A stretch of 64,000 nucleotides of DNA, from positions 1 through 64,000 of IMG/VR virus record IMGVR_UViG_3300023719_000001; one strand, written 5' to 3'. Each line of letters opens with the position of its first letter. The stretch's first letter is position 1. Source of the stretch: a virus. A model generated the notes under the pieces. That model was not told where the DNA came from. It worked only from the letters and a program-made list of their open reading frames with translations, and did no database searches. Of this stretch, positions 3,622 through 17,470 are shown in pieces. The translations under genes and the position numbers were made by a program.

Positions 3622-4075
3622 AACTAATCACCTCCCCAGTATCATCACCCAACGGCAACGTGCATCCATAAAATGTTCCCAAATTTTCGATTTTAAAATA
3701 GTACCATTTTTTCGTCACGTAGTCATAAATACTGTAGCAAGTGCAGCGGCCATCATGCCAACGGTTCTTTTTAATAGCATCAATATCAAGTTCTAAAAAT
3801 CGTTTGATTTCGGATAATTTATATGAAGCAAAAATATAATCCCATGGGCCACGCCAATGGATAAACCACATGTGCTCTACGAAGTTCGGCCATTCTACAG
3901 AAAATCGTTCGACTGGTTTACTTCTGCCAAAATTCTTATATTGAAGAAAATAGTTGCTAATACCGTGTACACCAGTCCAATAATGGCCTTTAGTGCAGAT
4001 GAAATGAGAATAGCTTTCCCATTCTGGATTTTGTATTTCCCAGTGATTCTTTTCGATTGAAAATCTATCGTCCAT
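3614..4075 (-). CDS. hypothetical Trp-rich protein
   Basis: 153-aa ORF overlapping neighbour by 8 nt. Confidence 0.4.
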   Translation of the reverse strand: MDDRFSIEKNHWEIQNPEWESYSHFICTKGHYWTGVHGISNYFLQYKNFGRSKPVERFSVEWPNFVEHMWFIHWRGPWDYIFASYKLSEIKRFLELDIDAIKKNRWHDGRCTCYSIYDYVTKKWYYFKIENLGTFYGCTLPLGDDTGEVISCD

Positions 4076-4139
4076 TCAATCTACCTCATAAAAGTCTAGT
4101 TTTACTGTATTATTTTCTAATTTTTATAGCGATGATACG

Positions 4140-7816: not shown

Positions 7817-8320
7817 CTACCAAAGGGTTGGCTCTTTATATCCAAGACTCCATTTAATATCAATTACTCGTTGGTTCTTACTTCCCATATATGGAAGTGA
7901 GATATCTTTTTCTGCTTCAATAAAAGGACCATCTACAAGGACGTTGATATCCGCAAGAATGTCAGCCACAAGTCCATCTTGGTTCCATAAGTCTTCCCAC
8001 TTGTATCCAGTCCAGAGCCAGACGTCTTTTTTGCTTAGAAATTCAGTCCACACACGATGGACGATTTTCTTAACAACTTCTCTATTCTCCGGCAAGAGTG
8101 GATCTCCACCAGTAAGCGTAAGCCCCTGAATATAATCAGGTCGAAGTAAATCTACAATTTTATCAAGCGTTTCATCCGTGAATGGCTGACCACAATTCGC
8201 GTTCCATGTAGTAGGATTCTGACAGCCGGGACAATGATGATCACAACCCTGCACGAAAAGTGTGACGCGCACCCCTTCGCCATTTGCTATATCACAGGGA
8301 ACAATTTTAGCGTAGTTCAT
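7817..8320 (-). CDS. nrdG: anaerobic ribonucleotide reductase activating protein NrdG (radical SAM)
   Basis: 167 aa; CDHHCPGCQN (CxxxCxxC) near the N-terminus. Confidence 0.8.
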   Translation of the reverse strand: MNYAKIVPCDIANGEGVRVTLFVQGCDHHCPGCQNPTTWNANCGQPFTDETLDKIVDLLRPDYIQGLTLTGGDPLLPENREVVKKIVHRVWTEFLSKKDVWLWTGYKWEDLWNQDGLVADILADINVLVDGPFIEAEKDISLPYMGSKNQRVIDIKWSLGYKEPTLW

Positions 8321-8700
8321 TTAATGCCCTCCATTTTTGCCCCACAATAGGGACAATACTTAAAAGGCTTGTATTTCTCAGAGCCGATACAAGGTGTCTC
8401 GCGCGGATAGAAAAAATCTTCGTAAAACTGTTCGTTGCAATTAGAACAATGATATACAGAGTCTTCTTCGTCATCGCACGGCCAGTGATCCCAGTGTGCA
8501 ATAGCACGAACTGTATTAGATTCTGCTTTCGGAAGCCCTAATAGGTCTTCGCGTTCTTCTGCTAGGAAATCGGAATAGTCATCTCGTTCGTCATAAAAGC
8601 GCATGTGCTTCAAGCCACTGTCAATTTCGTCTAGTAAAGGAGTGATATCCGCCCATTGAGCGTTTTCAGGAATATATTTCGCCATCTTGAACCACCTCAA
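8317..8700 (-). CDS. hypothetical zinc-ribbon protein
   Basis: 127 aa; CSNCNE...CPYCG. Confidence 0.4.
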   Translation of the reverse strand: MRWFKMAKYIPENAQWADITPLLDEIDSGLKHMRFYDERDDYSDFLAEEREDLLGLPKAESNTVRAIAHWDHWPCDDEEDSVYHCSNCNEQFYEDFFYPRETPCIGSEKYKPFKYCPYCGAKMEGIK

Positions 8701-8874
8701 TGCTTAAACGTCTGTAATGCTGCAAACACGACAATGGCAACGTTCACAACTCCACAAAAGAACTTCTGTGTTCTTTCGTCATCAAAACTTGCCTTGGACA
8801 CTTCAACGATAAGCTGCTCACATCGGATGCAACAGCCCATCATAATTAGAGTTGCTAAGACAGCAATCGTAAAA

Positions 8875-9183
8875 TCAATCCACATCGATTAGCACCTCCT
8901 CGATAGGAATAATCTGACCATCAACGTAGTAGCACATCTGACCGTGCTTATTATAATAAGGAGACATATAGCCGTAGCCTGTGTAGCCTGCACCTTTTCC
9001 GAACAAATAATACATGATGTGTGTATCCTTGTCGTACACCATAGGAGTGTCACCGATACGATAGAACCAGTCATTCGCTACAGTTACATTCCCTACTGAG
9101 TCTTTCACCCTTGTACTGCATCCAGTCAGTATAATCGCTACTAGAAGTACGCATACGGCAGTATTTTTAAAAATTTTAAACAT
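8875..9183 (-). CDS. putative lipoprotein
   Basis: 102 aa; signal peptide with lipobox LTGC. Confidence 0.45.
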   Translation of the reverse strand: MFKIFKNTAVCVLLVAIILTGCSTRVKDSVGNVTVANDWFYRIGDTPMVYDKDTHIMYYLFGKGAGYTGYGYMSPYYNKHGQMCYYVDGQIIPIEEVLIDVD

Positions 9184-9266
9184 ACCCTTCCTTTCTGTTA
9201 AAAGCGGAATTCTATCAAAATCTGTAAAAAATTATTACGATAATACGTTGATTAAATTTAGCAAAA

Positions 9267-9596
9267 TCAGGATTTTTTCTCCTCCTCCGGCAGATACCGC
9301 CAATAGTCAGGTTCCTTAACAGCATAAAGAACTCCAATTTCGTGCCATCCAACATAAGAACTCAGAACTGCTGTATCCTCTCTACCATCTTTATATCTGA
9401 TCTGGCACGGTACACCATATTTCGGCAACTCAATATTTGTGCTTTTCCAACCGTCGTTTTCTTCCGGCCAGTCAATTCTAGCTCCGCAATTTCCGCAGTA
9501 GCCGTTCTGGTTTCCATCTTCGTTATAAAGGTACTCACCACTGCCACAGCACTGACAGGAGACGATACCATCTTCTGCAAAAGGATTATTAATCAT
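9267..9596 (-). CDS. hypothetical Cys-rich protein
   Basis: 109 aa; CQCCGSG...CGNCG. Confidence 0.4.
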   Translation of the reverse strand: MINNPFAEDGIVSCQCCGSGEYLYNEDGNQNGYCGNCGARIDWPEENDGWKSTNIELPKYGVPCQIRYKDGREDTAVLSSYVGWHEIGVLYAVKEPDYWRYLPEEEKKS

Positions 9597-10044
9597 CGTT
9601 TACCTCCTGCGGGTAATCCGGCCACTGTTGCCAATGTGTCACATTAAAAAGAACATTACCATCTGAATCTGTCCAAAAGTCCTGTTCCTTGTAATATGAA
9701 GCAATTGTTTTGTATCTGCAACCGTCAGGATCTTTATCAATCGCCAAAACGTCATCGCTCCAACCAGACTTCGGGTTTACATCTGGATTGTGATCTTTTG
9801 TACTAATCCACAAATTACAGCCAAAGGCTTCTGCTGGGAAAGTCTTGCAGAATACGCCTTGTTCGTTTTTCAAAAGAATACGTTCAGCCTGATTGAATAC
9901 ATCATCAGGAACAGAACATTCAATTGTTCCGTTGTTTTTCTTTGCAATTACGTTAATAACGAACTCATCCGCATCCATATTAGCCGGCCTCCTCTTTCTC
10001 TTTGTCATCAAAAAAAGATCCGTAATCAAACCACTTATCCTCAA
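9589..10044 (-). CDS. hypothetical protein
   Basis: 151-aa ORF. Confidence 0.4.
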   Translation of the reverse strand: MRISGLITDLFLMTKRKRRPANMDADEFVINVIAKKNNGTIECSVPDDVFNQAERILLKNEQGVFCKTFPAEAFGCNLWISTKDHNPDVNPKSGWSDDVLAIDKDPDGCRYKTIASYYKEQDFWTDSDGNVLFNVTHWQQWPDYPQEVNDD

Positions 10045-10378
10045 GAATATTGCCGATAATCTTTACTGTACTGCCCCAGCCTTTTGTTGCCACACGGACA
10101 TATTTCCCCTTCATGTCCTCATATTTACTGCAACCAACCGTGTCCATAATCCGCATGATGGCCTCAATGCCCGAAGCATAACCTTCAAAGTTTTTTGCTC
10201 CAACATATCCTTTACCAAAGACGTAACCACCATAGCAACAACAAGGGCCATGACCATCAAGACTCAGATAAAAAACAAGACAAGCGTGATCTTCCATGCT
10301 AAGAGATACATTCTTGATTTCTGCATTCCAAATTTCGTATCCTTCAGCCTCAAGCTGCTTTTTCGTCCATTTCTTCAT
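9980..10378 (-). CDS. hypothetical protein
   Basis: 132-aa ORF. Confidence 0.4.
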   Translation of the reverse strand: MKKWTKKQLEAEGYEIWNAEIKNVSLSMEDHACLVFYLSLDGHGPCCCYGGYVFGKGYVGAKNFEGYASGIEAIMRIMDTVGCSKYEDMKGKYVRVATKGWGSTVKIIGNILEDKWFDYGSFFDDKEKEEAG

Positions 10379-10404
10379 ATATTCACCTCGCTAGAACGGC
10401 ACTT

Positions 10405-10668
10405 TTATCGTGAATGAATTTCTATCCAAAGATTTCTCAACGGAATTCCATTTATCTTTTTTGCCTCAAGATATTTTGTTTCATTTGGCTCATTATTGCG
10501 GTATTCGTACCTTATTGTGCTTTCCACTTCATAATAAGTGTTTTTATTTACAATCTCACAAGATGCCCAATTGTCGGTTTCGATAATGAGCACTTTCTTA
10601 TATGATGGGTTAAGCAGAGGCTCAATATTGAAGTGACATTTTGACTCAACACTCATAAAGCACCCCAC
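10405..10668 (-). CDS. hypothetical protein
   Basis: 87-aa ORF. Confidence 0.3.
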   Translation of the reverse strand: MGCFMSVESKCHFNIEPLLNPSYKKVLIIETDNWASCEIVNKNTYYEVESTIRYEYRNNEPNETKYLEAKKINGIPLRNLWIEIHSR

Positions 10669-10797
10669 TTCTCACGACCACAGGTGTTACAGACAAAGTG
10701 CCATTTATCACACAAACTGTGTTTTGCATCATAGAACATCACGCCACCACATCGACTACACTCTGGAAGGAACCAACGGAGTAGACGTTTCAAGAGT

Positions 10798-11142
10798 TTA
10801 GCAATCATTCTTACTCTTTCTCCATAATCCGTGCTTTTTCATAATCTCGAAGAAATCTTCCATAAGAGTAGCGGCCATCTTACCAGGTATTTCAGGGAGA
10901 TCTAGTCCAAAATCTCTAAAAGCACAGTGTAGGCAGTCCCATGGAGTTAAGGCGAATTTTTCATAAAAATCCAACGTATTCGTCTCGTACTCAAACTGTC
11001 TCACTTCATTCTTAGTGAGCCATTTCTGCCACTTGCCACAAGCAGAGCAATACAGACCAATCTGGCTACCTTTACTCTGGATAAAGAAGGATTCACTGCC
11101 ACACTTACATTTGAAGTCCATCTCAGCCACCTGCCTTTTCAA
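10798..11142 (-). CDS. hypothetical zinc-finger protein
   Basis: 114 aa; CKCGS...CSACGKW. Confidence 0.4.
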   Translation of the reverse strand: MKRQVAEMDFKCKCGSESFFIQSKGSQIGLYCSACGKWQKWLTKNEVRQFEYETNTLDFYEKFALTPWDCLHCAFRDFGLDLPEIPGKMAATLMEDFFEIMKKHGLWRKSKNDC

Positions 11143-11368
11143 TGCTCTGAATCATACAGCTCATGTTAGGATGAGCCTTTTCAAAGCGATGATGCGCCTT
11201 GTTTATAGCATCATTCTGATCCTGCGCCTTTACCATATATGTATTGAATGCCTGATTCCCATCATCGTAGTACATTACTTCAACAGACCAATAATCCATA
11301 AGACTCCTTTCTTTATCGACCGTTATAAAAATCAAACTCAACATCAGAAATAATATCTTCCATTTCAT
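11123..11368 (-). CDS. hypothetical secreted/membrane protein
   Basis: 81 aa with N-terminal hydrophobic segment. Confidence 0.35.
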   Translation of the reverse strand: MKWKILFLMLSLIFITVDKERSLMDYWSVEVMYYDDGNQAFNTYMVKAQDQNDAINKAHHRFEKAHPNMSCMIQSIEKAGG

Positions 11369-11496
11369 TTTGACTAATATTGTTCGCTTGTTGTATGACT
11401 CGAATAATTTCGAGAATCAACTGACGTATACGTTCCACATCCATGTTTTCATGCCACCACACCCACCCTGCTTTTATTCCATCAATAAGATGTTAC

Positions 11497-12348
11497 TTAC
11501 TCACCCTTAGTTACAACGGTATCAGCACCCTGTACAGTCACCCAACCATGCTTCAGACGAGCTTCTGCTTCCTTCATCTGAATCAGCTCAGGAGTGATAG
11601 ACTCGGAAAGCACCTTATTTGCATCAGCCTCGGCCTGTGCTTCAATCATCTTAACGTCAGCTTCCGTCTGTGCCTTAACCTTATCAGTCTCCGCCTGAGC
11701 CAGAGCGGTCTGCTTATTCAGCTCTGCAATCTCTGCGTCCTGCTTTGCCTGCTCCTTTGCGCGAATCTTCTGCATCAGGGTATCATCAGGCTGTGCATCC
11801 ACAATCAGAGCAGAGGAAACATTGATTCCATACTCTGCGGTCAGCTTCTCATTCAGATAGTTGGTGATTGCAGTATTCACACCTGCTCGATCATCGGAAT
11901 AAATCTGCATGACACTGAACTGAGGAGTAACTTCCTTGACGTAAGCAATAATATCGTTCTGAATCTTGCTCTCCATCAGGCTCTCACCGTCCATACCACC
12001 AAACTTGGTGTACAGTTCAACAACATGCTCCGGCAGGAAGTTATAATTGACAGTCAGGTTGATTGCAATCGTACCGCCATTAGCAGGGGCATCAATGTGC
12101 CAATCTGCGTGTTCCTTTACGCCATAGTCGGACGGAGCATTAGAAAATACCACTCGCTGCTGAGTAATCGGGAACTCAGACACATGCTTCAGTGGACTCA
12201 TGAAATGCCAGCCCTGAGAAATAGTCTGCTGCTCAACACCCTTTGCAGAATAAACAACACCAACATAGCCAGTATGTACTCGCTCGGTACAAAGCACCGC
12301 ACCGACTGCAATGAGGAATGCAACGAAAATTGCCATAAATTTCTTCAT
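11497..12348 (-). CDS. SPFH/Band-7 domain membrane protein (HflK/C-, prohibitin-like)
   Basis: 283 aa; N-terminal TM, SPFH core GYVGVVYS...GWHFMSPL, C-terminal Ala/Glu/Gln-rich coiled coil; AAGGAG RBS. Confidence 0.7.
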   Translation of the reverse strand: MKKFMAIFVAFLIAVGAVLCTERVHTGYVGVVYSAKGVEQQTISQGWHFMSPLKHVSEFPITQQRVVFSNAPSDYGVKEHADWHIDAPANGGTIAINLTVNYNFLPEHVVELYTKFGGMDGESLMESKIQNDIIAYVKEVTPQFSVMQIYSDDRAGVNTAITNYLNEKLTAEYGINVSSALIVDAQPDDTLMQKIRAKEQAKQDAEIAELNKQTALAQAETDKVKAQTEADVKMIEAQAEADANKVLSESITPELIQMKEAEARLKHGWVTVQGADTVVTKGE

Positions 12349-12358
12349 AAGTATCTCC

Positions 12359-12436
12359 TTAATCTTTATAGTTATCTTTTAAAATGTAATAGGCGATAAC
12401 CCATACAATCACAAAGAAAACAATGATTTCTTTCAT
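12359..12436 (-). CDS. hydrophobic micropeptide (25 aa, MKEIIVFFVIVWVIAYYILKDNYKD)
   Basis: hand-translated small ORF sitting between nrdD and the SPFH gene, 10 nt upstream of the SPFH start; single TM helix. Confidence 0.3.
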   Translation of the reverse strand: MKEIIVFFVIVWVIAYYILKDNYKD

Positions 12437-12470
12437 AAATAACCCCACCAACCCACCGCTTATACATTAT

Positions 12471-14672
12471 TTAGTTGTCGCTCAAATGAACCACTCGATC
12501 TCGAATTTCCTGAGTGCGTCCTTGATTCCAAAAATTGGTTCCCAGGTAACCGCAGGTACGTCTTACGACATTCATTTTGTTCTGGTCACGATTACCACAA
12601 TTCGGGCACTCCCATACAAGCTTGTGGTTTTTCTCATCTTCTACAATTTTAATTTCGCCGTCGTAACCACAGCACTGGCAGTAGTCGGACTTGGTGTTCA
12701 GCTCCGCATACATGATGTTGTCGTAAATGAACTGCATAACACTAAGCACCGCAGGAATGTTCTGCTGCAGATTTGGCACCTCGATATAGCTAATCGCTCC
12801 TCCGGGAGAAAGCTTCTGGAACTCGCTCTCAAACTTTAGCTTAGTGAAAGCATCGATATGTTCACGGACAACGACATGATAAGAATTTGTTACGTAGTCA
12901 TGGTCAGTAACATCTGGAATCATACCGAACCGCTTCTGCAAGCAACGTGCAAATTCATATGTAGTGGACTCCAAAGGAGTACCATACAGGGAGTAATCGA
13001 TGTTTTCAGCGGCCTTCCACTCGTTACACTTGTCATTCATGTGCTGCATAATTTCGAGAGCGAAAGGTTTAGCATCAGGATCGGTGTGGCTCTTGCCGGT
13101 CATATACTTCACACACTCATACAGACCGGCATAACCCAGGCTGATGGTGGAGTAGCCGCCGAAGAGCAACTTGTCGATCTTCTCGCCCTTCTTTAGACGA
13201 GCTAATGCACCGTACTGCCACAGGATAGGGGCCATATCAGAAGGAGTGCCGAGTAGACGCTTGTGACGAATCTGTAGAGCTCGATGACACAATTCGAGTC
13301 GTTCATCGAAGATTTTCCAGAATTTATCCTTGTCCCTTTCTGAACTGCAAGCCACATCTACCAGATTGATAGTTACCACACCTTGGTTAAAGCGGCCATA
13401 ATACTTATGCCCCTTAACCCAATTCTTGGCATTAGCTACGTTCTCAGTGATGCGGTCAGGAGTAAGGAAGGATCTACAGCCCATGCTAGGCCACACACCG
13501 CCTTTAAGCTCCTTCATAACCTTTGCGGAAATATAATCAGGAACCATTCGCTTGGCAGTACACTTAGCCGCCAGCTCAGTCAGGTAATAATATTTAGAAT
13601 CGGGATGAATGTTATCCTCATCAAGAGCATAAATGAGCTTTGGGAAGGCCGGAGTGACCCATACCCCAACTTCATTCTTTACACCCTGGATGCGCTGTTT
13701 TAACACTTCTTCAACAATTAGAGCCAAATCATCACGAGTCTGACCTTCTGGAACTTCATCGAGGTACATAAACACGGTGATAAAAGGGGCCTGACCGTTG
13801 GTGGTCATCAGGGTGACCACCTGATACTGGATGGTCTGCACGCCACGAGCAATTTCTTTATGTAAACGCTCTTCTACAATTCGATTGATAGTTTCAGACT
13901 CCGGCATCTTATCGATTTCATTATTCTGAACCATCTCGTAAAATTCTTGGCGTATTTCACTTGCAATCTTCTTGCGGGAAACATCTACGAATGGAGCCAG
14001 ATGTGAAAGTGTAATACTCTGACCTCCAAATTGCATCGAAGCCACCTGTGCAATGATCTGGGTGGCAATGTTGCAGGCGGTGGAAAAGCTGTGGGGCTTC
14101 TCGATATAGGTGCCGGAGATGACGGTGCCGTTCTGGAGCATATCTTCCAGATTGACCAGATCGCAATTATGGCAGTGCATCACAAAATAATCTTTATCAT
14201 GCACATGAATTAAACCATTTTTGTGTGCATCTCGGATATCCTTTGGAAGTAGAAGTCTGTCAGTTAGTTCCTTAGATACCTCTCCGGCCATGTAATCACG
14301 TTGCGTGCTATTGATGGTTGCGTTCTTATTACTATTTTCCTGATTAATTGCGTCGTTCTGGGCATCAAGAATTTCAAGAATACTTGCGTTGGTTTTCTCT
14401 TTATCTCGAATTTCCTGACGATACTGTCGCCACTGACTATATGCATCTGCAACATCAATGAACGGGCTATTTGCTAGACTGTCCACTACGATATCCTGAA
14501 TCTGCTCAACAGAAAGAATGTCCGGCATGTCTGCGATATAGTCAGCAATCGCATTCGACACACGAGCGTCGATGCCACCCGGCGTACAGGTCATCGCCTT
14601 CTCAATCGCATTTACAATCTTACTTTTATCAAAAGAAACTTTCGTTCCATCGCGTTTAATCACATATTCCAT
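12471..14672 (-). CDS. nrdD: anaerobic ribonucleoside-triphosphate reductase NrdD (class III, glycyl radical)
   Basis: 733 aa; N-terminal ATP-cone, C-terminal Zn site CQCCGYDGE...CPNCGN and glycyl-radical motif RTCGYLG. Confidence 0.9.
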   Translation of the reverse strand: MEYVIKRDGTKVSFDKSKIVNAIEKAMTCTPGGIDARVSNAIADYIADMPDILSVEQIQDIVVDSLANSPFIDVADAYSQWRQYRQEIRDKEKTNASILEILDAQNDAINQENSNKNATINSTQRDYMAGEVSKELTDRLLLPKDIRDAHKNGLIHVHDKDYFVMHCHNCDLVNLEDMLQNGTVISGTYIEKPHSFSTACNIATQIIAQVASMQFGGQSITLSHLAPFVDVSRKKIASEIRQEFYEMVQNNEIDKMPESETINRIVEERLHKEIARGVQTIQYQVVTLMTTNGQAPFITVFMYLDEVPEGQTRDDLALIVEEVLKQRIQGVKNEVGVWVTPAFPKLIYALDEDNIHPDSKYYYLTELAAKCTAKRMVPDYISAKVMKELKGGVWPSMGCRSFLTPDRITENVANAKNWVKGHKYYGRFNQGVVTINLVDVACSSERDKDKFWKIFDERLELCHRALQIRHKRLLGTPSDMAPILWQYGALARLKKGEKIDKLLFGGYSTISLGYAGLYECVKYMTGKSHTDPDAKPFALEIMQHMNDKCNEWKAAENIDYSLYGTPLESTTYEFARCLQKRFGMIPDVTDHDYVTNSYHVVVREHIDAFTKLKFESEFQKLSPGGAISYIEVPNLQQNIPAVLSVMQFIYDNIMYAELNTKSDYCQCCGYDGEIKIVEDEKNHKLVWECPNCGNRDQNKMNVVRRTCGYLGTNFWNQGRTQEIRDRVVHLSDN

Positions 14673-14683
14673 GTAATCACCTC

Positions 14684-16207
14684 TTACTCAGCATCCTGCA
14701 CATCGTTCTTTTCAGAAACAATCGTCGAATCGCTTACAAGGTTCACATTCTTAGTGACCTTTGCATCGTAACTGTTGGCACGGACAATTTCCTTCATATC
14801 AATGCCAGTTGCTTCACGAACGGCCTCAAAAGTCTGAGCCATGACTGCTGGGACATTGCCGGAAATCTCAGAAACACCATTTGCGTTACTGCCAATGATG
14901 GAAACCTTGTCAATGGACGCCAGCGGCTTTGCAACCTCAGATGCAATGCTAGGAAGAATCTTAATGATCATTTCGCCCATAGCCGCACCATTGTACTGCT
15001 TGTAAGCTTCAGCCTTCTTCAGCATAGCTTCTGCTTCAGCAAGACCCTTCTGCTTGATGGCCTCAGCTTCCGCCATACCAACCATACGGATACCTTCTGC
15101 CTCCTGTTCCTTAGCGAACTTTGCGGATTCTGCAGAACGCTCTGCTTCGTACTTCTTTGCTTCAGCTTCCTTCTGACGCTTATACAGGTCAGCGTCTGCC
15201 TGCTTACGAACTTCCGCATCCAGCTTCTGCTGGCGAACTTCTGCTTCTTTAGCGGCCAGTTCAACCATCTTTTTCTGCTGTGCAATAGCTGCATCGGCTT
15301 CAGCTTCCTTGATTTCCTTATCACGGAGATTCATCTGAATCTGACCAGCCGCCTCAGCATCAGCATTTGCTCTATCGGCCTTAGTCTTTAGAGCGGCCTG
15401 AGCCAGCAGATACTCATTGTTGCGCTGGGCAATAGCAGTCTTGGACTCAATTTCCTTCTCGTTTGCTTCACGAGCCGTGTCAGCCTTTGCGCGAGCAATA
15501 TCACGAGCGGCTTCTGCCTTAGCAATCTCAGCCTGTTTCTTCACCAGTTCCTCCTGCTGGACACCAATTGCTTCAATGACACCATGGTTATGACCCTGTG
15601 CGTCAATAGCATCCTTGATATCCTGAACATTGAAAGTAACAACTTCCAGACCCATCTTTGCCAGATCAGGACGAGCATTCTCAACAACGGAAATTGCCAT
15701 CTGTTTACGATTAGTCAGGATATCGTTGACAGTCATCTCAGAGACAATCTCTCGCAGATTGCCCTGAAGGACATCGTTGATCTTCTCGTTGATTCCATCT
15801 TCACTCATGCCAAGGAAGTTGGAAATAGCAGCCTGCTGACGAGCACTAATGTAAGTCTTTGCATCCTCGCAACCGGCGCTCTTAATCTCATCATCAGTTA
15901 CAGTAGAGTTTTCAGAGTAAACCTGAACAGTAACAACAGAGTCCAGCCACAGAGAAACACCCTCTTTAGTCTTAACACCTGTTTCAGGAGTCTTAACATC
16001 AATCTTGAGCAGTCGCATATTTAGACGGTCAGCTCGCTGAATAACCGGAAGGACGAACACGCCACGACCACAGATAACTTTTGGCTTAGACAGCCCAAAA
16101 CCTGTCACGACGATTGCCTGAGTAGGAGGAGCCTTCTTGTAGCAAGTAAATGCAAAGGCGACCAGAAGGACAACAACGACAGGAATTGCAATAAACATCA
16201 TATTCAT
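14684..16207 (-). CDS. flotillin-like SPFH domain protein (YqiK/FloT-like)
   Basis: 507 aa; N-terminal TM, SPFH domain, long EA-repeat coiled coil (KAEAARDIARAKADTAREANEKE...). Confidence 0.7.
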   Translation of the reverse strand: MNMMFIAIPVVVVLLVAFAFTCYKKAPPTQAIVVTGFGLSKPKVICGRGVFVLPVIQRADRLNMRLLKIDVKTPETGVKTKEGVSLWLDSVVTVQVYSENSTVTDDEIKSAGCEDAKTYISARQQAAISNFLGMSEDGINEKINDVLQGNLREIVSEMTVNDILTNRKQMAISVVENARPDLAKMGLEVVTFNVQDIKDAIDAQGHNHGVIEAIGVQQEELVKKQAEIAKAEAARDIARAKADTAREANEKEIESKTAIAQRNNEYLLAQAALKTKADRANADAEAAGQIQMNLRDKEIKEAEADAAIAQQKKMVELAAKEAEVRQQKLDAEVRKQADADLYKRQKEAEAKKYEAERSAESAKFAKEQEAEGIRMVGMAEAEAIKQKGLAEAEAMLKKAEAYKQYNGAAMGEMIIKILPSIASEVAKPLASIDKVSIIGSNANGVSEISGNVPAVMAQTFEAVREATGIDMKEIVRANSYDAKVTKNVNLVSDSTIVSEKNDVQDAE

Positions 16208-16223
16208 GTATTTTTCTCCTTGA

Positions 16224-16313
16224 TTATCTTAAAACAAATTTGGCAAAGCCAAAAATCAATACTGTAACAAACAGGGCGAATACCGCAAATGGTTCTTCCC
16301 AATTGTATCTCAT
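16224..16313 (-). CDS. hydrophobic micropeptide (29 aa, MRYNWEEPFAVFALFVTVLIFGFAKFVLR)
   Basis: internal ATG of the 69-aa ORF with AAGAGG RBS 8 nt upstream; 16 nt before the flotillin start. Confidence 0.3.
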   Translation of the reverse strand: MRYNWEEPFAVFALFVTVLIFGFAKFVLR

Positions 16314-16326
16314 ATATGTAAACCTC

Positions 16327-16767
16327 TTAGAATTTGACTTCATCGGCACAATCAGGAACCACGGCAGTCTCAATGTTTGGAGCATGAATCTCTGGACGGA
16401 AAACCAAGTCATCCGTATAATCAGGCTTTGCATGACGAGGAATGTAATCCAGCATTGTAGTTAGGTTGTCAGTTACTTCGCTAGGAACCTTCTTGAGCGT
16501 ATCTACGACGCTTTCAACAATCTTCTGCTGTTCCTCTAAAAGCCGGATTTTATAGTCCAAATACCAACGTGCCTTCGTCAAATCTTGAAGCTGAGAATTG
16601 CCATCTTTGTGACCTGCCCGGCTCAGATACTTACCAACATTCCAAAGATAAGCATCCTTGTCTAACTGCCACTCCCGTAGCACTTTGATTGCCTCATAGG
16701 GATTGTCTGCACCGCCGTAATAAGACGGGTGCTCGACGTTCTTCTTGATTTCGTCAAGTGTTTGCAT
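16327..16767 (-). CDS. hypothetical protein (HPSYYGG...NPYE motif, DUF3310-like from memory)
   Basis: start trimmed to MQTLDEIKK (ATG 16767, AGGAGG 7 nt upstream); overlaps the thyX stop by 14 nt. Confidence 0.4.
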   Translation of the reverse strand: MQTLDEIKKNVEHPSYYGGADNPYEAIKVLREWQLDKDAYLWNVGKYLSRAGHKDGNSQLQDLTKARWYLDYKIRLLEEQQKIVESVVDTLKKVPSEVTDNLTTMLDYIPRHAKPDYTDDLVFRPEIHAPNIETAVVPDCADEVKF

Positions 16768-17470
16768 CAATAACCTCCTTGTTTTTTTCAATAGGCTTAT
16801 AAACATCTGCCAACCGAGGATGACGGCCACAGCAGCCACGACCTTCTGGACAGAACGGATACTTCGGATTAGCCTCACAGGAAGGAACCATCCAGTTTGC
16901 TACTTCAGGACAAACCTGTGCAACTTCCTTCTTCATTTCTGTGAACATCTCGCGGATTTCTTTTTGAGCCCTAGAACAAAGTCGAAGATGACTCATCTCA
17001 ATCAAAGCACGAGCGTTCATCGTGATGTAGAATTCTGTACAGCAAGCATTTGGCAGAACTGCACGAGCGTCTTCGTTTTTGGCATTATGATACTTCTTGA
17101 GAATCTGATAATCGGTATCAATGTCCGACATCATATTATCGAAAACATCAGCATCTTCACCGGTAAACGGATTTACATACTTGAATCCATCCTCGCTGCA
17201 ATAACGCTGGCTGCGGCAGCTCATGCTAATATGTCGATGACGACTAATCTGTGCCAGAAGTGCGCGACTCACATCTTTGACATAGAACGTAAAGTTGATG
17301 TGTTCAAGCACAGAATAATGACCGCTGGCCTTACATCCCTTAGCAATCTTATAATCGTCAGTCATTGAAGAATCATAACAAATACTCGCAGCTTCCTCTA
17401 CAATATCTAAAGGATTCTTATCATTTGTAGGAACAACTCGCTGTGTGTACGCAATCAAATCAACAGTCAT
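16754..17470 (-). CDS. thyX: flavin-dependent thymidylate synthase ThyX
   Basis: 238 aa; ThyX signature RHRHISMSCRSQRY (RHRxxSxxxxSxR). Confidence 0.85.
   Translation of the reverse strand: MTVDLIAYTQRVVPTNDKNPLDIVEEAASICYDSSMTDDYKIAKGCKASGHYSVLEHINFTFYVKDVSRALLAQISRHRHISMSCRSQRYCSEDGFKYVNPFTGEDADVFDNMMSDIDTDYQILKKYHNAKNEDARAVLPNACCTEFYITMNARALIEMSHLRLCSRAQKEIREMFTEMKKEVAQVCPEVANWMVPSCEANPKYPFCPEGRGCCGRHPRLADVYKPIEKNKEVIDANT

Follow-up and report, generated by a model that had tools for sequence, protein, structure and literature searches.

Few organisers of membranes are as widespread as SPFH scaffolds, whose accessory subunits are nonetheless poorly understood. In bacterial and archaeal NfeD-SPFH operons, namely YuaF-FloT, YqeZ/NfeD-FloA, YbbJ-QmcA, YqiJ-YqiK and PH1510-PH1511, the gene for a membrane protein lies directly upstream of the gene for the SPFH scaffold and is co-transcribed with it; NfeD proteins possess several transmembrane helices and a C-terminal beta-barrel, and some of them a ClpP-like protease domain. 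As for the scaffolds themselves, in the solved structures of prohibitin, HflK/C and erlin, 22-26 subunits are assembled into a ring that domes over a patch of membrane. SPFH proteins are also encoded by phages, and to our knowledge these hundreds of copies have no known function. Here, the window refers to a stretch of 64,000 nucleotides (nt), i.e., positions 1 to 64,000 of the IMG/VR virus record IMGVR_UViG_3300023719_000001, in which nrdD, the gene for a class III anaerobic ribonucleotide reductase, is flanked by two SPFH genes, SPFH283 and flot507, each directly preceded by the gene for a single-helix micropeptide, micro1 and micro2, respectively. The favoured reading, to which we give a probability of roughly 0.6, is that two independent and optional cassettes stand beside a mosaic nrdD, where micro1 would be a subunit of SPFH283 and flot507 a bacterial-type flotillin behind a phage peptide. 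The genes concerned are the following:

11497-12348, minus strand: SPFH283, 283 amino acids (aa), prohibitin/HflK-like, Pfam Band_7
12359-12436, minus strand: micro1, 25 aa, MKEIIVFFVIVWVIAYYILKDNYKD, single-helix peptide gene
12471-14672, minus strand: nrdD, 733 aa, class III anaerobic ribonucleotide reductase, between both cassettes
14684-16207, minus strand: flot507, 507 aa, FloT-type flotillin
16224-16313, minus strand: micro2, 29 aa, MRYNWEEPFAVFALFVTVLIFGFAKFVLR, single-helix peptide gene

Comparison with described systems

In Kayvirus (Staphylococcus phage K/G1/Staph1N), MbpV, a protein with an N-terminal transmembrane helix and a charged tail, is encoded beside the SPFH protein MbpS, as described independently (PMC7150955); MbpV was likened to holins and Sec-dependent export was also speculated upon, the function of neither protein being established (PMC7150955). 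Besides this discussion, the literature search returned no functional study of a phage SPFH protein. The arrangement resembles that of cassette 1 (micro1 with SPFH283) in that a small protein with an N-terminal transmembrane helix is encoded upstream of, and overlapping, an anchored SPFH protein of 263 aa, and MbpS aligns with SPFH283 over 98% of the length (26% identity, E 1e-21), both belonging to PHROG 200 and Band_7. MbpV, on the other hand, has 102 aa and a long charged tail, whereas micro1 has 25 aa, a tail of six residues and no detectable similarity to MbpV; besides, the Kayvirus pair lies in the lysis region beside lysK and tgl, and cassette 1 in a nucleotide-metabolism region.

The preliminary description of this locus, made from the letters of the DNA, had likened both cassettes to NfeD-flotillin and YqiJ-YqiK pairs. 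This kinship had to be abandoned. The micropeptides matched no profile in Pfam (NfeD PF01957 included), NCBIfam, PHROGs or PADLOC, and with 25-29 aa and one helix they are too short for the C-terminal beta-barrel of NfeD and, as such, are not NfeD proteins. What is shared is the layout, i.e., a membrane protein gene directly upstream of a co-transcribed SPFH gene, from which the same accessory-subunit logic would be expected; an adjacent and co-inherited membrane gene is found for micro1 and SPFH283, and in part for micro2 and flot507. Cooperation between FloA and NfeD has been reported (PMC11222466).

Like eukaryotic flotillin-1/2 and Bacillus FloT, flot507 has a hydrophobic anchor at the N-terminus, followed by an SPFH domain, a long coiled coil and a Flot domain, and it aligns end-to-end with flotillin-1 (9l3g, 9bq2), but it is phage-encoded and scores below the FloT equivalog cut-off. 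With the prohibitin, HflK-HflC and erlin cages, SPFH283 shares profile matches over the anchor-proximal SPFH domain and the coiled coil, together with a predicted type II topology; unlike prohibitin and HflK-HflC, it is a single gene rather than a heteromeric pair, with no sign of an enclosed AAA protease. A known anti-phage defence system was considered and rejected, as PADLOC-DB 2.0 gave no match for either SPFH protein or either micropeptide.

The micro1-SPFH283 unit

SPFH283 matches Pfam Band_7 (PF01145) at 85.3 bits (7e-24, cut-off 23.6 bits), with no Flot domain in Pfam, and belongs to PHROG 200 (2e-54 over residues 1-280), a family of phage SPFH proteins labelled “lipoprotein.” From the N-terminus on, it consists of a transmembrane helix, the SPFH domain and a coiled coil, with GWVTVQGAD as a conserved C-terminal motif. 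The assignment of both proteins to the SPFH family passed the profile search; within this family, SPFH283 is prohibitin/HflK-like without belonging to HflK/HflC proper. The family profile of SPFH283 does match HflK (3e-8), but the best match is prohibitin (5e-17), with erlin-1/2 at ~1e-12, QmcA and stomatin among the others; HflC reaches 6e-3 only, no NCBIfam model (HflK and HflC included) was matched at E <= 0.01, and the gene stands single. A PDB sequence search with SPFH283 alone returned nothing, the solved structures being reached by the family profile only. Exact or 99% identical copies occur on hundreds of gut metagenome contigs under HflC-like names, all database matches in that copy search being at least 98% identical; “HflC” and “High frequency of lysogenization C protein” are homology labels only in these sources.

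The ORFs (open reading frames), their coordinates and the gaps of 10 nt (micro1 to SPFH283) and 16 nt (micro2 to flot507) between micropeptide stop and SPFH start were found as first described, with a micropeptide gene before each SPFH gene around nrdD. Each micropeptide exhibits one hydrophobic stretch, with a maximal Kyte-Doolittle value over 17 residues of 2.56 for micro1 and 2.44 for micro2, and a Shine-Dalgarno-like sequence lies upstream of each. An alternative form of micro1, extended to a TTG codon, would have 30 aa and reach 12451. The TAA stop of micro1 overlaps the Shine-Dalgarno sequence of SPFH283 (TAAGGAG). On the minus strand of the window, a small hydrophobic ORF abuts the upstream end of five out of 63 ORFs with 100 aa or more, the two SPFH genes being among these five; the arrangement of micropeptide and SPFH gene exceeds chance.

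Both micropeptide ORFs proved conserved in homologous loci and evolve as coding sequences, with purifying selection in the annotated frame that is absent from the other two frames. In a population survey of 98 IMG/VR loci, micro1 lies at a fixed distance from SPFH283 in all 80 loci carrying SPFH283, and is missing wherever SPFH283 is missing, i.e., from all 11 flotillin-bearing loci without it. The spacing of the two genes is constant across three different upstream contexts. The 29 haplotypes of micro1 present 10, 2 and 12 variable sites at the first, second and third codon position, and codon variants are synonymous (15) or conservative (11), the replacements being confined to V/I/M, A/S and N/D apart from single D-to-G and Y-to-C variants, and the stop remaining TAA or TGA. 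Against the divergent allele of locus L010 (loci of the survey are designated L followed by a number), the non-synonymous divergence (dN) is 0.15 and the synonymous divergence (dS) 1.29, i.e., a dN/dS of ~0.12, as compared with ~0.6-1.3 in shifted frames. The SPFH orthologues of L010, L099, L179 and L189, which are 77-96% identical and lie on contigs of 30-110 kb with unrelated backbones, each have a micro1 homologue of 24-26 aa before them (e.g., VKELIAFFLLSWAVAFLIINNFNDKE). As such, micro1 and SPFH283 form a real two-gene unit.

In the L010 lineage, the transmembrane helix of SPFH283 (residues 5-18) takes up eight of its ten amino-acid changes, whereas at the nucleotide level the changes occur all along the gene. 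Micro1 and the SPFH helix are thus the fast-evolving parts, which would be compatible with, without proving, a co-evolving helix-helix contact.

Small membrane partners of phage SPFH genes

The pairing extends well beyond the phage family of the window. In 17 out of 17 more distant IMG/VR relatives, whose SPFH proteins are 58-78% identical to that of the window and which have different phage backbones, a protein of 26-65 aa with an N-terminal transmembrane helix is encoded so close that its stop codon and the SPFH start overlap or are a few nt apart, most relatives exhibiting an ATGA-type overlap. Annotated phages present the following partners:

Clostridium phage Amboise: 59-aa partner, upstream of SPFH
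Kayvirus: MbpV, 102 aa, upstream of the SPFH protein MbpS
Bacillus phage Spock: 44-aa partner, upstream of SPFH
Bacillus phage Goe21: 50-aa partner, upstream of SPFH
Enterococcus phage TJE2: 67-aa partner, directly downstream of SPFH
Haloarcula (archaeal) virus HCTV-9: 44-aa partner, directly downstream of SPFH
Caulobacter phage Karma: 116-aa multi-helix protein, upstream of SPFH
Bacillus phage FADO: possible 24-aa ORF, ~70 nt upstream of SPFH
Streptococcus Javan532: no abutting small membrane ORF

Of the eight annotated phages examined, seven encode a small membrane protein abutting SPFH. Single-pass partners range from 24 to 102 aa, with a length following the SPFH clade; the longer ones, for which Pfam gave nothing significant, begin with an uncharged N-terminus, followed by one helix and a charged tail of 30-80 aa that is first basic and then acidic, and are predicted by the positive-inside rule to have the N-terminus out and the tail in the cytoplasm. 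A small membrane protein with a prohibitin-like SPFH protein is therefore a recurrent and so far undescribed phage pairing, of which micro1 is the shortest example. The notion of micropeptide-SPFH cassettes thus holds for micro1 and SPFH283, which are operon-like in many phages, but not to the same extent for micro2, which is no obligate partner of the flotillin.

Elsewhere, the neighbours of SPFH pairs include a lysin, an RNA ligase, a DNA polymerase, replication initiators and regulators. An association with lysis modules was rejected, being seen in Kayvirus only; four other phages have regulators, replication initiators, an HNH endonuclease or a nucleotidyltransferase there. Ribonucleotide-reductase genes adjoin SPFH in two other large phages of Firmicutes, FADO (L106, SPFH-nrdH-nrdI-nrdE) and TJE2 (L107, thyA ... 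nrdG-like-SPFH), which may reflect shared nucleotide-metabolism synteny rather than a functional link.

The flotillin cassette and the slot before nrdD

Flot507 matches Pfam Band_7 at 70.3 bits (3e-19, cut-off 23.6) and Flot (PF15975) at 34.5 bits (2.5e-8, cut-off 27), PHROG 200 at 5e-10 only, and belongs to the flotillins, matching human flotillin-1 with an E of 1e-48 over residues 27-489. Against the NCBIfam FloT model (NF058507), it scores 257.3 bits over positions 5-474 of 477, below the equivalog cut-off of 700, so it is FloT-like and not an orthologue of Bacillus FloT. Among 50,697 phage records, 10 contain a flotillin-type protein, in several cases only a fragment, and in the phage family of the window such proteins occur in 18 IMG/VR loci. 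The view that phage SPFH proteins are uncommon is thus right for flotillins, but the SPFH283 type, with homologues in 491 of these 50,697 records and PHROG 200 as its family, is not uncommon.

Outside the phage family, flot507 is 79% identical at the aa level to the flotillin of a Subdoligranulum variabile metagenome-assembled genome, and 75-78% identical to numerous proteins whose contigs reach 233 kb. The closeness to the Subdoligranulum flotillin points to exchange with bacteria, in which flot507 would most likely have been captured from a host. The Subdoligranulum gene is preceded by ~400 nt of non-coding sequence, with neither NfeD nor a micropeptide there. In the gut phage csAssE-Sib (~151 kb; L191 1899-4126), a flotillin of 566 aa lies behind a multi-helix membrane protein of 164 aa; the latter looks NfeD-like by eye, but Pfam found none and no claim is made.

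The slot between DUF3310 and nrdD is variable. Among 79 SPFH283-bearing loci, it is found in three main states, namely lemA and a 268-aa membrane protein in 54, a stand-alone 30-aa peptide before nrdD in 12, and micro2 with the flotillin in 6. The LemA protein has 185-190 aa (Pfam LemA, 1e-33), and the 268-aa protein overlapping it has no family match (L022 2384-3665, L004 4692-5988), this pair being the commonest occupant. Whatever follows, be it the flotillin-linked peptide, the stand-alone peptide or lemA, the left junction is common, and identity collapses after codon 6:

16296-16329, minus strand: shared left junction TAAGAGGTTTACATAnATGAGATACAAyTGGGAA, comprising the DUF3310 stop, a ribosome-binding site and codons 1-6 (MRYNWE/K)

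Divergence right after a shared junction bears the mark of cassettes exchanged through recombination at a short, conserved site. Tiny membrane ORFs seem to accumulate at such junctions; a further hydrophobic ORF of 28 aa (MRNENDTYLIFAIFFFIVAPGLALMAFR) lies between DUF3310 and the next gene in L003 (5792-5878) and L004 (4609-4695).

Micro2 is intact, with 29 aa, in 14 of the 18 flotillin loci; the exceptions are L002 (27-aa variant), L013 (frameshifted), L015 (start not found by the scan) and L004, where it is replaced in the order lemA-268aa-flot507. This block mirrors lemA-254aa-120aa-flotillin in L100 (52, 40 and 76% identity), which suggests that a lemA-X-flotillin block was originally acquired. 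In L100 (JAQCZI010000011), a direct repeat (1707-2003, 3821-4100) that includes a truncated flotillin 5′ end (MPVIIVALPVLIIVSFLCYRKAPPTQAIVVTG) flanks lemA-254aa-120aa, and it looks as if the block had been inserted into, or had duplicated, the start region of the flotillin. That micro2 corresponds to a fused end of the neighbouring 268-aa or 120-aa protein in lemA blocks was considered and discarded, the C-terminal sequences of these proteins being unlike micro2. Micro2 neither arrived with the flotillin nor is needed for carrying it.

Along these lines, micro2, and possibly micro1, could be nothing else than the start and first helix of a lemA-type gene, left by swaps at the MRYNW junction, functionless, and kept open by chance or for ribosome delivery. 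This explanation, unlikely in our judgement, draws on the ribosome-binding site, codons 1-6 and helix of equal length shared by lemA, the flotillin-linked peptide and the stand-alone peptide, on one locus with lemA truncated to 26 aa, on L004, where the flotillin directly follows the 268-aa gene, on the damaged micro2 of L013 and L002, and on the bacterial flotillin homologue examined, which has no such peptide. It is difficult to reconcile with the way the ORF varies. The stand-alone peptide is 52% identical to micro2, and between the two types of alleles ~70% of synonymous sites differ, with a proportion of non-synonymous differences (pN) of 0.28-0.38 against 0.70 for synonymous ones (pS) and out-of-frame ratios >1; yet length (29/30 aa), Pro8, the hydrophobic core and the C-terminal FxFxKxVLR are retained, and the ORF is intact in the 12 stand-alone loci as well as in most flotillin loci. 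For micro1, whose homologues occur on unrelated phage backbones, the explanation is inapplicable. On this sequence evidence, micro2 is rather a real and constrained small phage gene.

Mosaicism of nrdD and independence of the two cassettes

The product of nrdD in the window matches Pfam NRDD (640.8 bits, 3e-192), ATP-cone and Gly_radical, and has no membrane segment. Among relatives, at least four alleles exist, with aa identities of 99, 90, 81 and 28%; some forms have 1000-1040 aa, a size consistent with inteins, and one form is split by a 229-aa ORF, mosaic forms being located in L001 (6348-9350), L003 (7536-10658), L004 (7536-10610) and L053 (2687-5882). Homing-type elements in nrdD could explain the frequent recombination of its flanks.

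The flotillin is present in 18 of the 98 IMG/VR loci, of which 6 also carry SPFH283. Counted by contig, both cassettes are found on 6, the flotillin only on 11 and SPFH283 only on ~70, and GenBank MT835556, with an nrdD of 78% nucleotide identity, reads DUF3310-nrdD-nrdG with neither cassette. All four combinations of presence and absence therefore exist, and the two cassettes assort independently. Nor are they copies of each other, as a “duplication” of one cassette around nrdD had implied. By BLASTP, as a single comparison, SPFH283 and flot507 align in the Ala/Glu/Lys-rich coiled coil only (29% over 133 residues, E 1e-4), and micro1 and micro2 share no sequence. The cassettes are independent and non-paralogous, with SPFH proteins of different subfamilies, i.e., prohibitin/HflK-like on the one hand and FloT/flotillin-1-like on the other hand.

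Cassette 1 is bordered by two similar G-rich motifs:

12444-12457, minus strand: G-rich motif GGTGGGTTGGTGGG, upstream boundary of the micro1-SPFH283 cassette
11454-11467, minus strand: G-rich motif GGTGGGTGTGGTGG, downstream boundary of the micro1-SPFH283 cassette

The homology begins ~25 nt before micro1 at the upstream motif, whatever the gene upstream (three contexts), and stops at the downstream motif after SPFH283. In 11 loci without micro1 and SPFH283, other cargo is found between the same two motifs, the upstream one being kept after nrdD; it is absent from the L010 allele. Allowing up to two mismatches, the window holds four matches as against 0.54 expected, the interest lying in the two that bracket the cassette. 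The upstream motif may double as ribosome-binding site of micro1; more generally, these motifs could serve as junctions for recombination, as ribosome-binding sites of an unusual kind or as elements that form G-quadruplexes. As a whole, nrdD sits between two recombination hot spots, each with an optional membrane-protein cargo, in a phage of ~130 kb.

Proposed organisation and alternative explanations

Under the favoured reading, cassette 1 would be the local and minimal version of a widespread phage two-gene module. The abutting or overlapping frames of partner and SPFH gene suggest translational coupling. By homology with solved cages (PMC11260169), SPFH283 would most likely form a dome, predicted to lie on the outer face of the cytoplasmic membrane, since Lys-Lys precedes its helix and hence indicates a type II orientation; flot507 would likewise form a large ring or dome and, its lysines following the helix, is predicted to face the cytoplasm. 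Micro1 would most likely enter the membrane within, or next to, the ring made of the SPFH transmembrane helices, as a subunit in fixed ratio, having presumably lost all but six residues of the 30-80-aa charged tail borne by the partners of other lineages, and flot507 probably arrived within a lemA-X-flotillin block. We infer the oligomeric cages, their topology and the association of peptide and scaffold, as well as the direction of flotillin transfer, from these likenesses. As candidate effects on the host, the cages might regulate proteases of the FtsH type, stabilise the membrane or membrane proteins in the course of infection, or keep other phages out. A bolder extension, which is possible but on which we would not wager, is that prohibitin-like SPFH proteins of PHROG 200 are generally two-component, with a tiny, single-pass, non-NfeD subunit whose tail has ~6-80 residues and of which micro1 is the minimal form, and that SPFH283 and flotillin cages together remodel both faces of the membrane.

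Several points weigh against this reading. Javan532 has no abutting small membrane ORF, and in TJE2 and HCTV-9 the partner is downstream rather than upstream of SPFH. The wider survey of pairs is phylogenetically non-independent, with perhaps 8-10 lineages, and between partner classes of different length no sequence homology is detectable, so that these classes may be analogous instead of forming a single family. As many substitutions are tolerated by transmembrane helices, a low dN/dS carries less weight in a hydrophobic ORF of 25 aa than it would in a globular protein. Some members of PHROG 200 may be anchored in another way, as hinted by the label “lipoprotein”; in SPFH283 itself, the residue before a conserved Cys reads as Leu, i.e., a non-canonical lipobox. 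The topology is deduced from the positive-inside rule only. Finally, micro2 is dispensable for flotillin carriage in L004 and frameshifted in L013.

Alternatively, the micropeptide ORFs may act in cis, the short hydrophobic peptide inserting while it is translated and thereby targeting the polycistronic mRNA to the membrane, with terminating ribosomes re-initiating on the SPFH gene and the peptide having no stable partner, so that hydrophobicity and position of the ORF alone matter. Such a leader function would suit the overlap of the micro1 stop with the SPFH Shine-Dalgarno sequence and the ATGA-type overlaps of most relatives, the fact that partners across lineages have in common an N-terminal hydrophobic helix but no sequence, the occurrence of a micro2-like peptide directly before nrdD and of the same six codons followed by a helix at the start of lemA, and the small hydrophobic ORFs at neighbouring junctions, such as the 28-aa ORF of L003 and L004. 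It is nonetheless still less probable than the lemA remnant. A leader should be unneeded for two SPFH proteins of which each is anchored by a hydrophobic N-terminus of its own and has a strong Shine-Dalgarno sequence, and the stand-alone peptide precedes nrdD, a soluble enzyme with no need of membrane targeting; besides, the partner is encoded downstream of SPFH in TJE2 and HCTV-9, phages with an SPFH protein of only 77% identity still conserve the polar tail motif of micro1 (YYIL-KDNYK, or IINNFNDKE), and charged tails of 30-80 aa in longer partners would be superfluous.

That the flanking scaffolds were selected to cooperate with nrdD, e.g., by tethering or protecting the oxygen-sensitive reductase at the membrane, is highly improbable and already largely refuted, because, in spite of the tight co-directional thyX-DUF3310-micro2-flot-nrdD-micro1-SPFH order with 10-16 nt gaps and no internal promoter or terminator signal, and of the SPFH genes beside ribonucleotide-reductase genes in FADO and TJE2, the cassettes come and go independently among close relatives (MT835556 having neither), the slot holds lemA with the 268-aa gene or a lone 30-aa peptide in most genomes, SPFH pairs of other phages adjoin other functions from lysin to regulators, and NrdD lacks a membrane segment.

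Coming back to the favoured reading, if micro1 is a true subunit, a 25-aa peptide and a 283-aa scaffold from a very abundant gut phage would provide a minimal and tractable system for the entry of clients or cofactors into an SPFH cage, and would flag a class of unannotated micro-genes missed by gene callers. Were the peptides merely leaders or remnants, the locus would be an ordinary mosaic accessory region. In either case, it exhibits the swapping of membrane-protein cargo at junctions that are short and conserved, next to an nrdD gene variable both in allele and in size, and, as a secondary curiosity, flot507 documents a rare flotillin close to bacterial ones in a virulent-type gut phage.

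Neighbouring genes

The phage family to which the window belongs is very abundant in the human gut, with contigs of ~125-140 kb. From 9.5 to 18.5 kb every gene is on the minus strand, the order of transcription being thyX, DUF3310, micro2, flot507, nrdD, micro1, SPFH283, small ORFs and nrdG-like. Further genes of this context are:

16754-17470, minus strand: thyX, context gene, first in the order of transcription
16327-16878, minus strand: DUF3310 protein (Pfam DUF3310, 2.8e-10), upstream neighbour of the flotillin slot
7820-8320, minus strand: nrdG-like activase (tblastn with NrdG of L001, 57% identity, E 7e-61)

Promoter-like and terminator-like sites across the region show no excess over shuffled sequence; the whole block thus reads as a single co-directional unit, and cassettes as independent “moron” transcription units were dropped on the same scan. 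The listed DUF3310 ORF, with a GTG start at 16878, overlaps thyX by ~125 nt; relatives begin this protein at an internal Met (MFISLLKK... or MQTLDEIKK...), so the true start probably lies further downstream. While nrdG closely follows nrdD in L001, after one small HNH-like ORF, the two are ~4 kb apart in the window (7820-12348), separated by the SPFH cassette and several small ORFs. Between nrdG and nrdD, a 62-aa hydrophobic ORF (8697-8885) abuts a 127-aa ORF (8317-8700).

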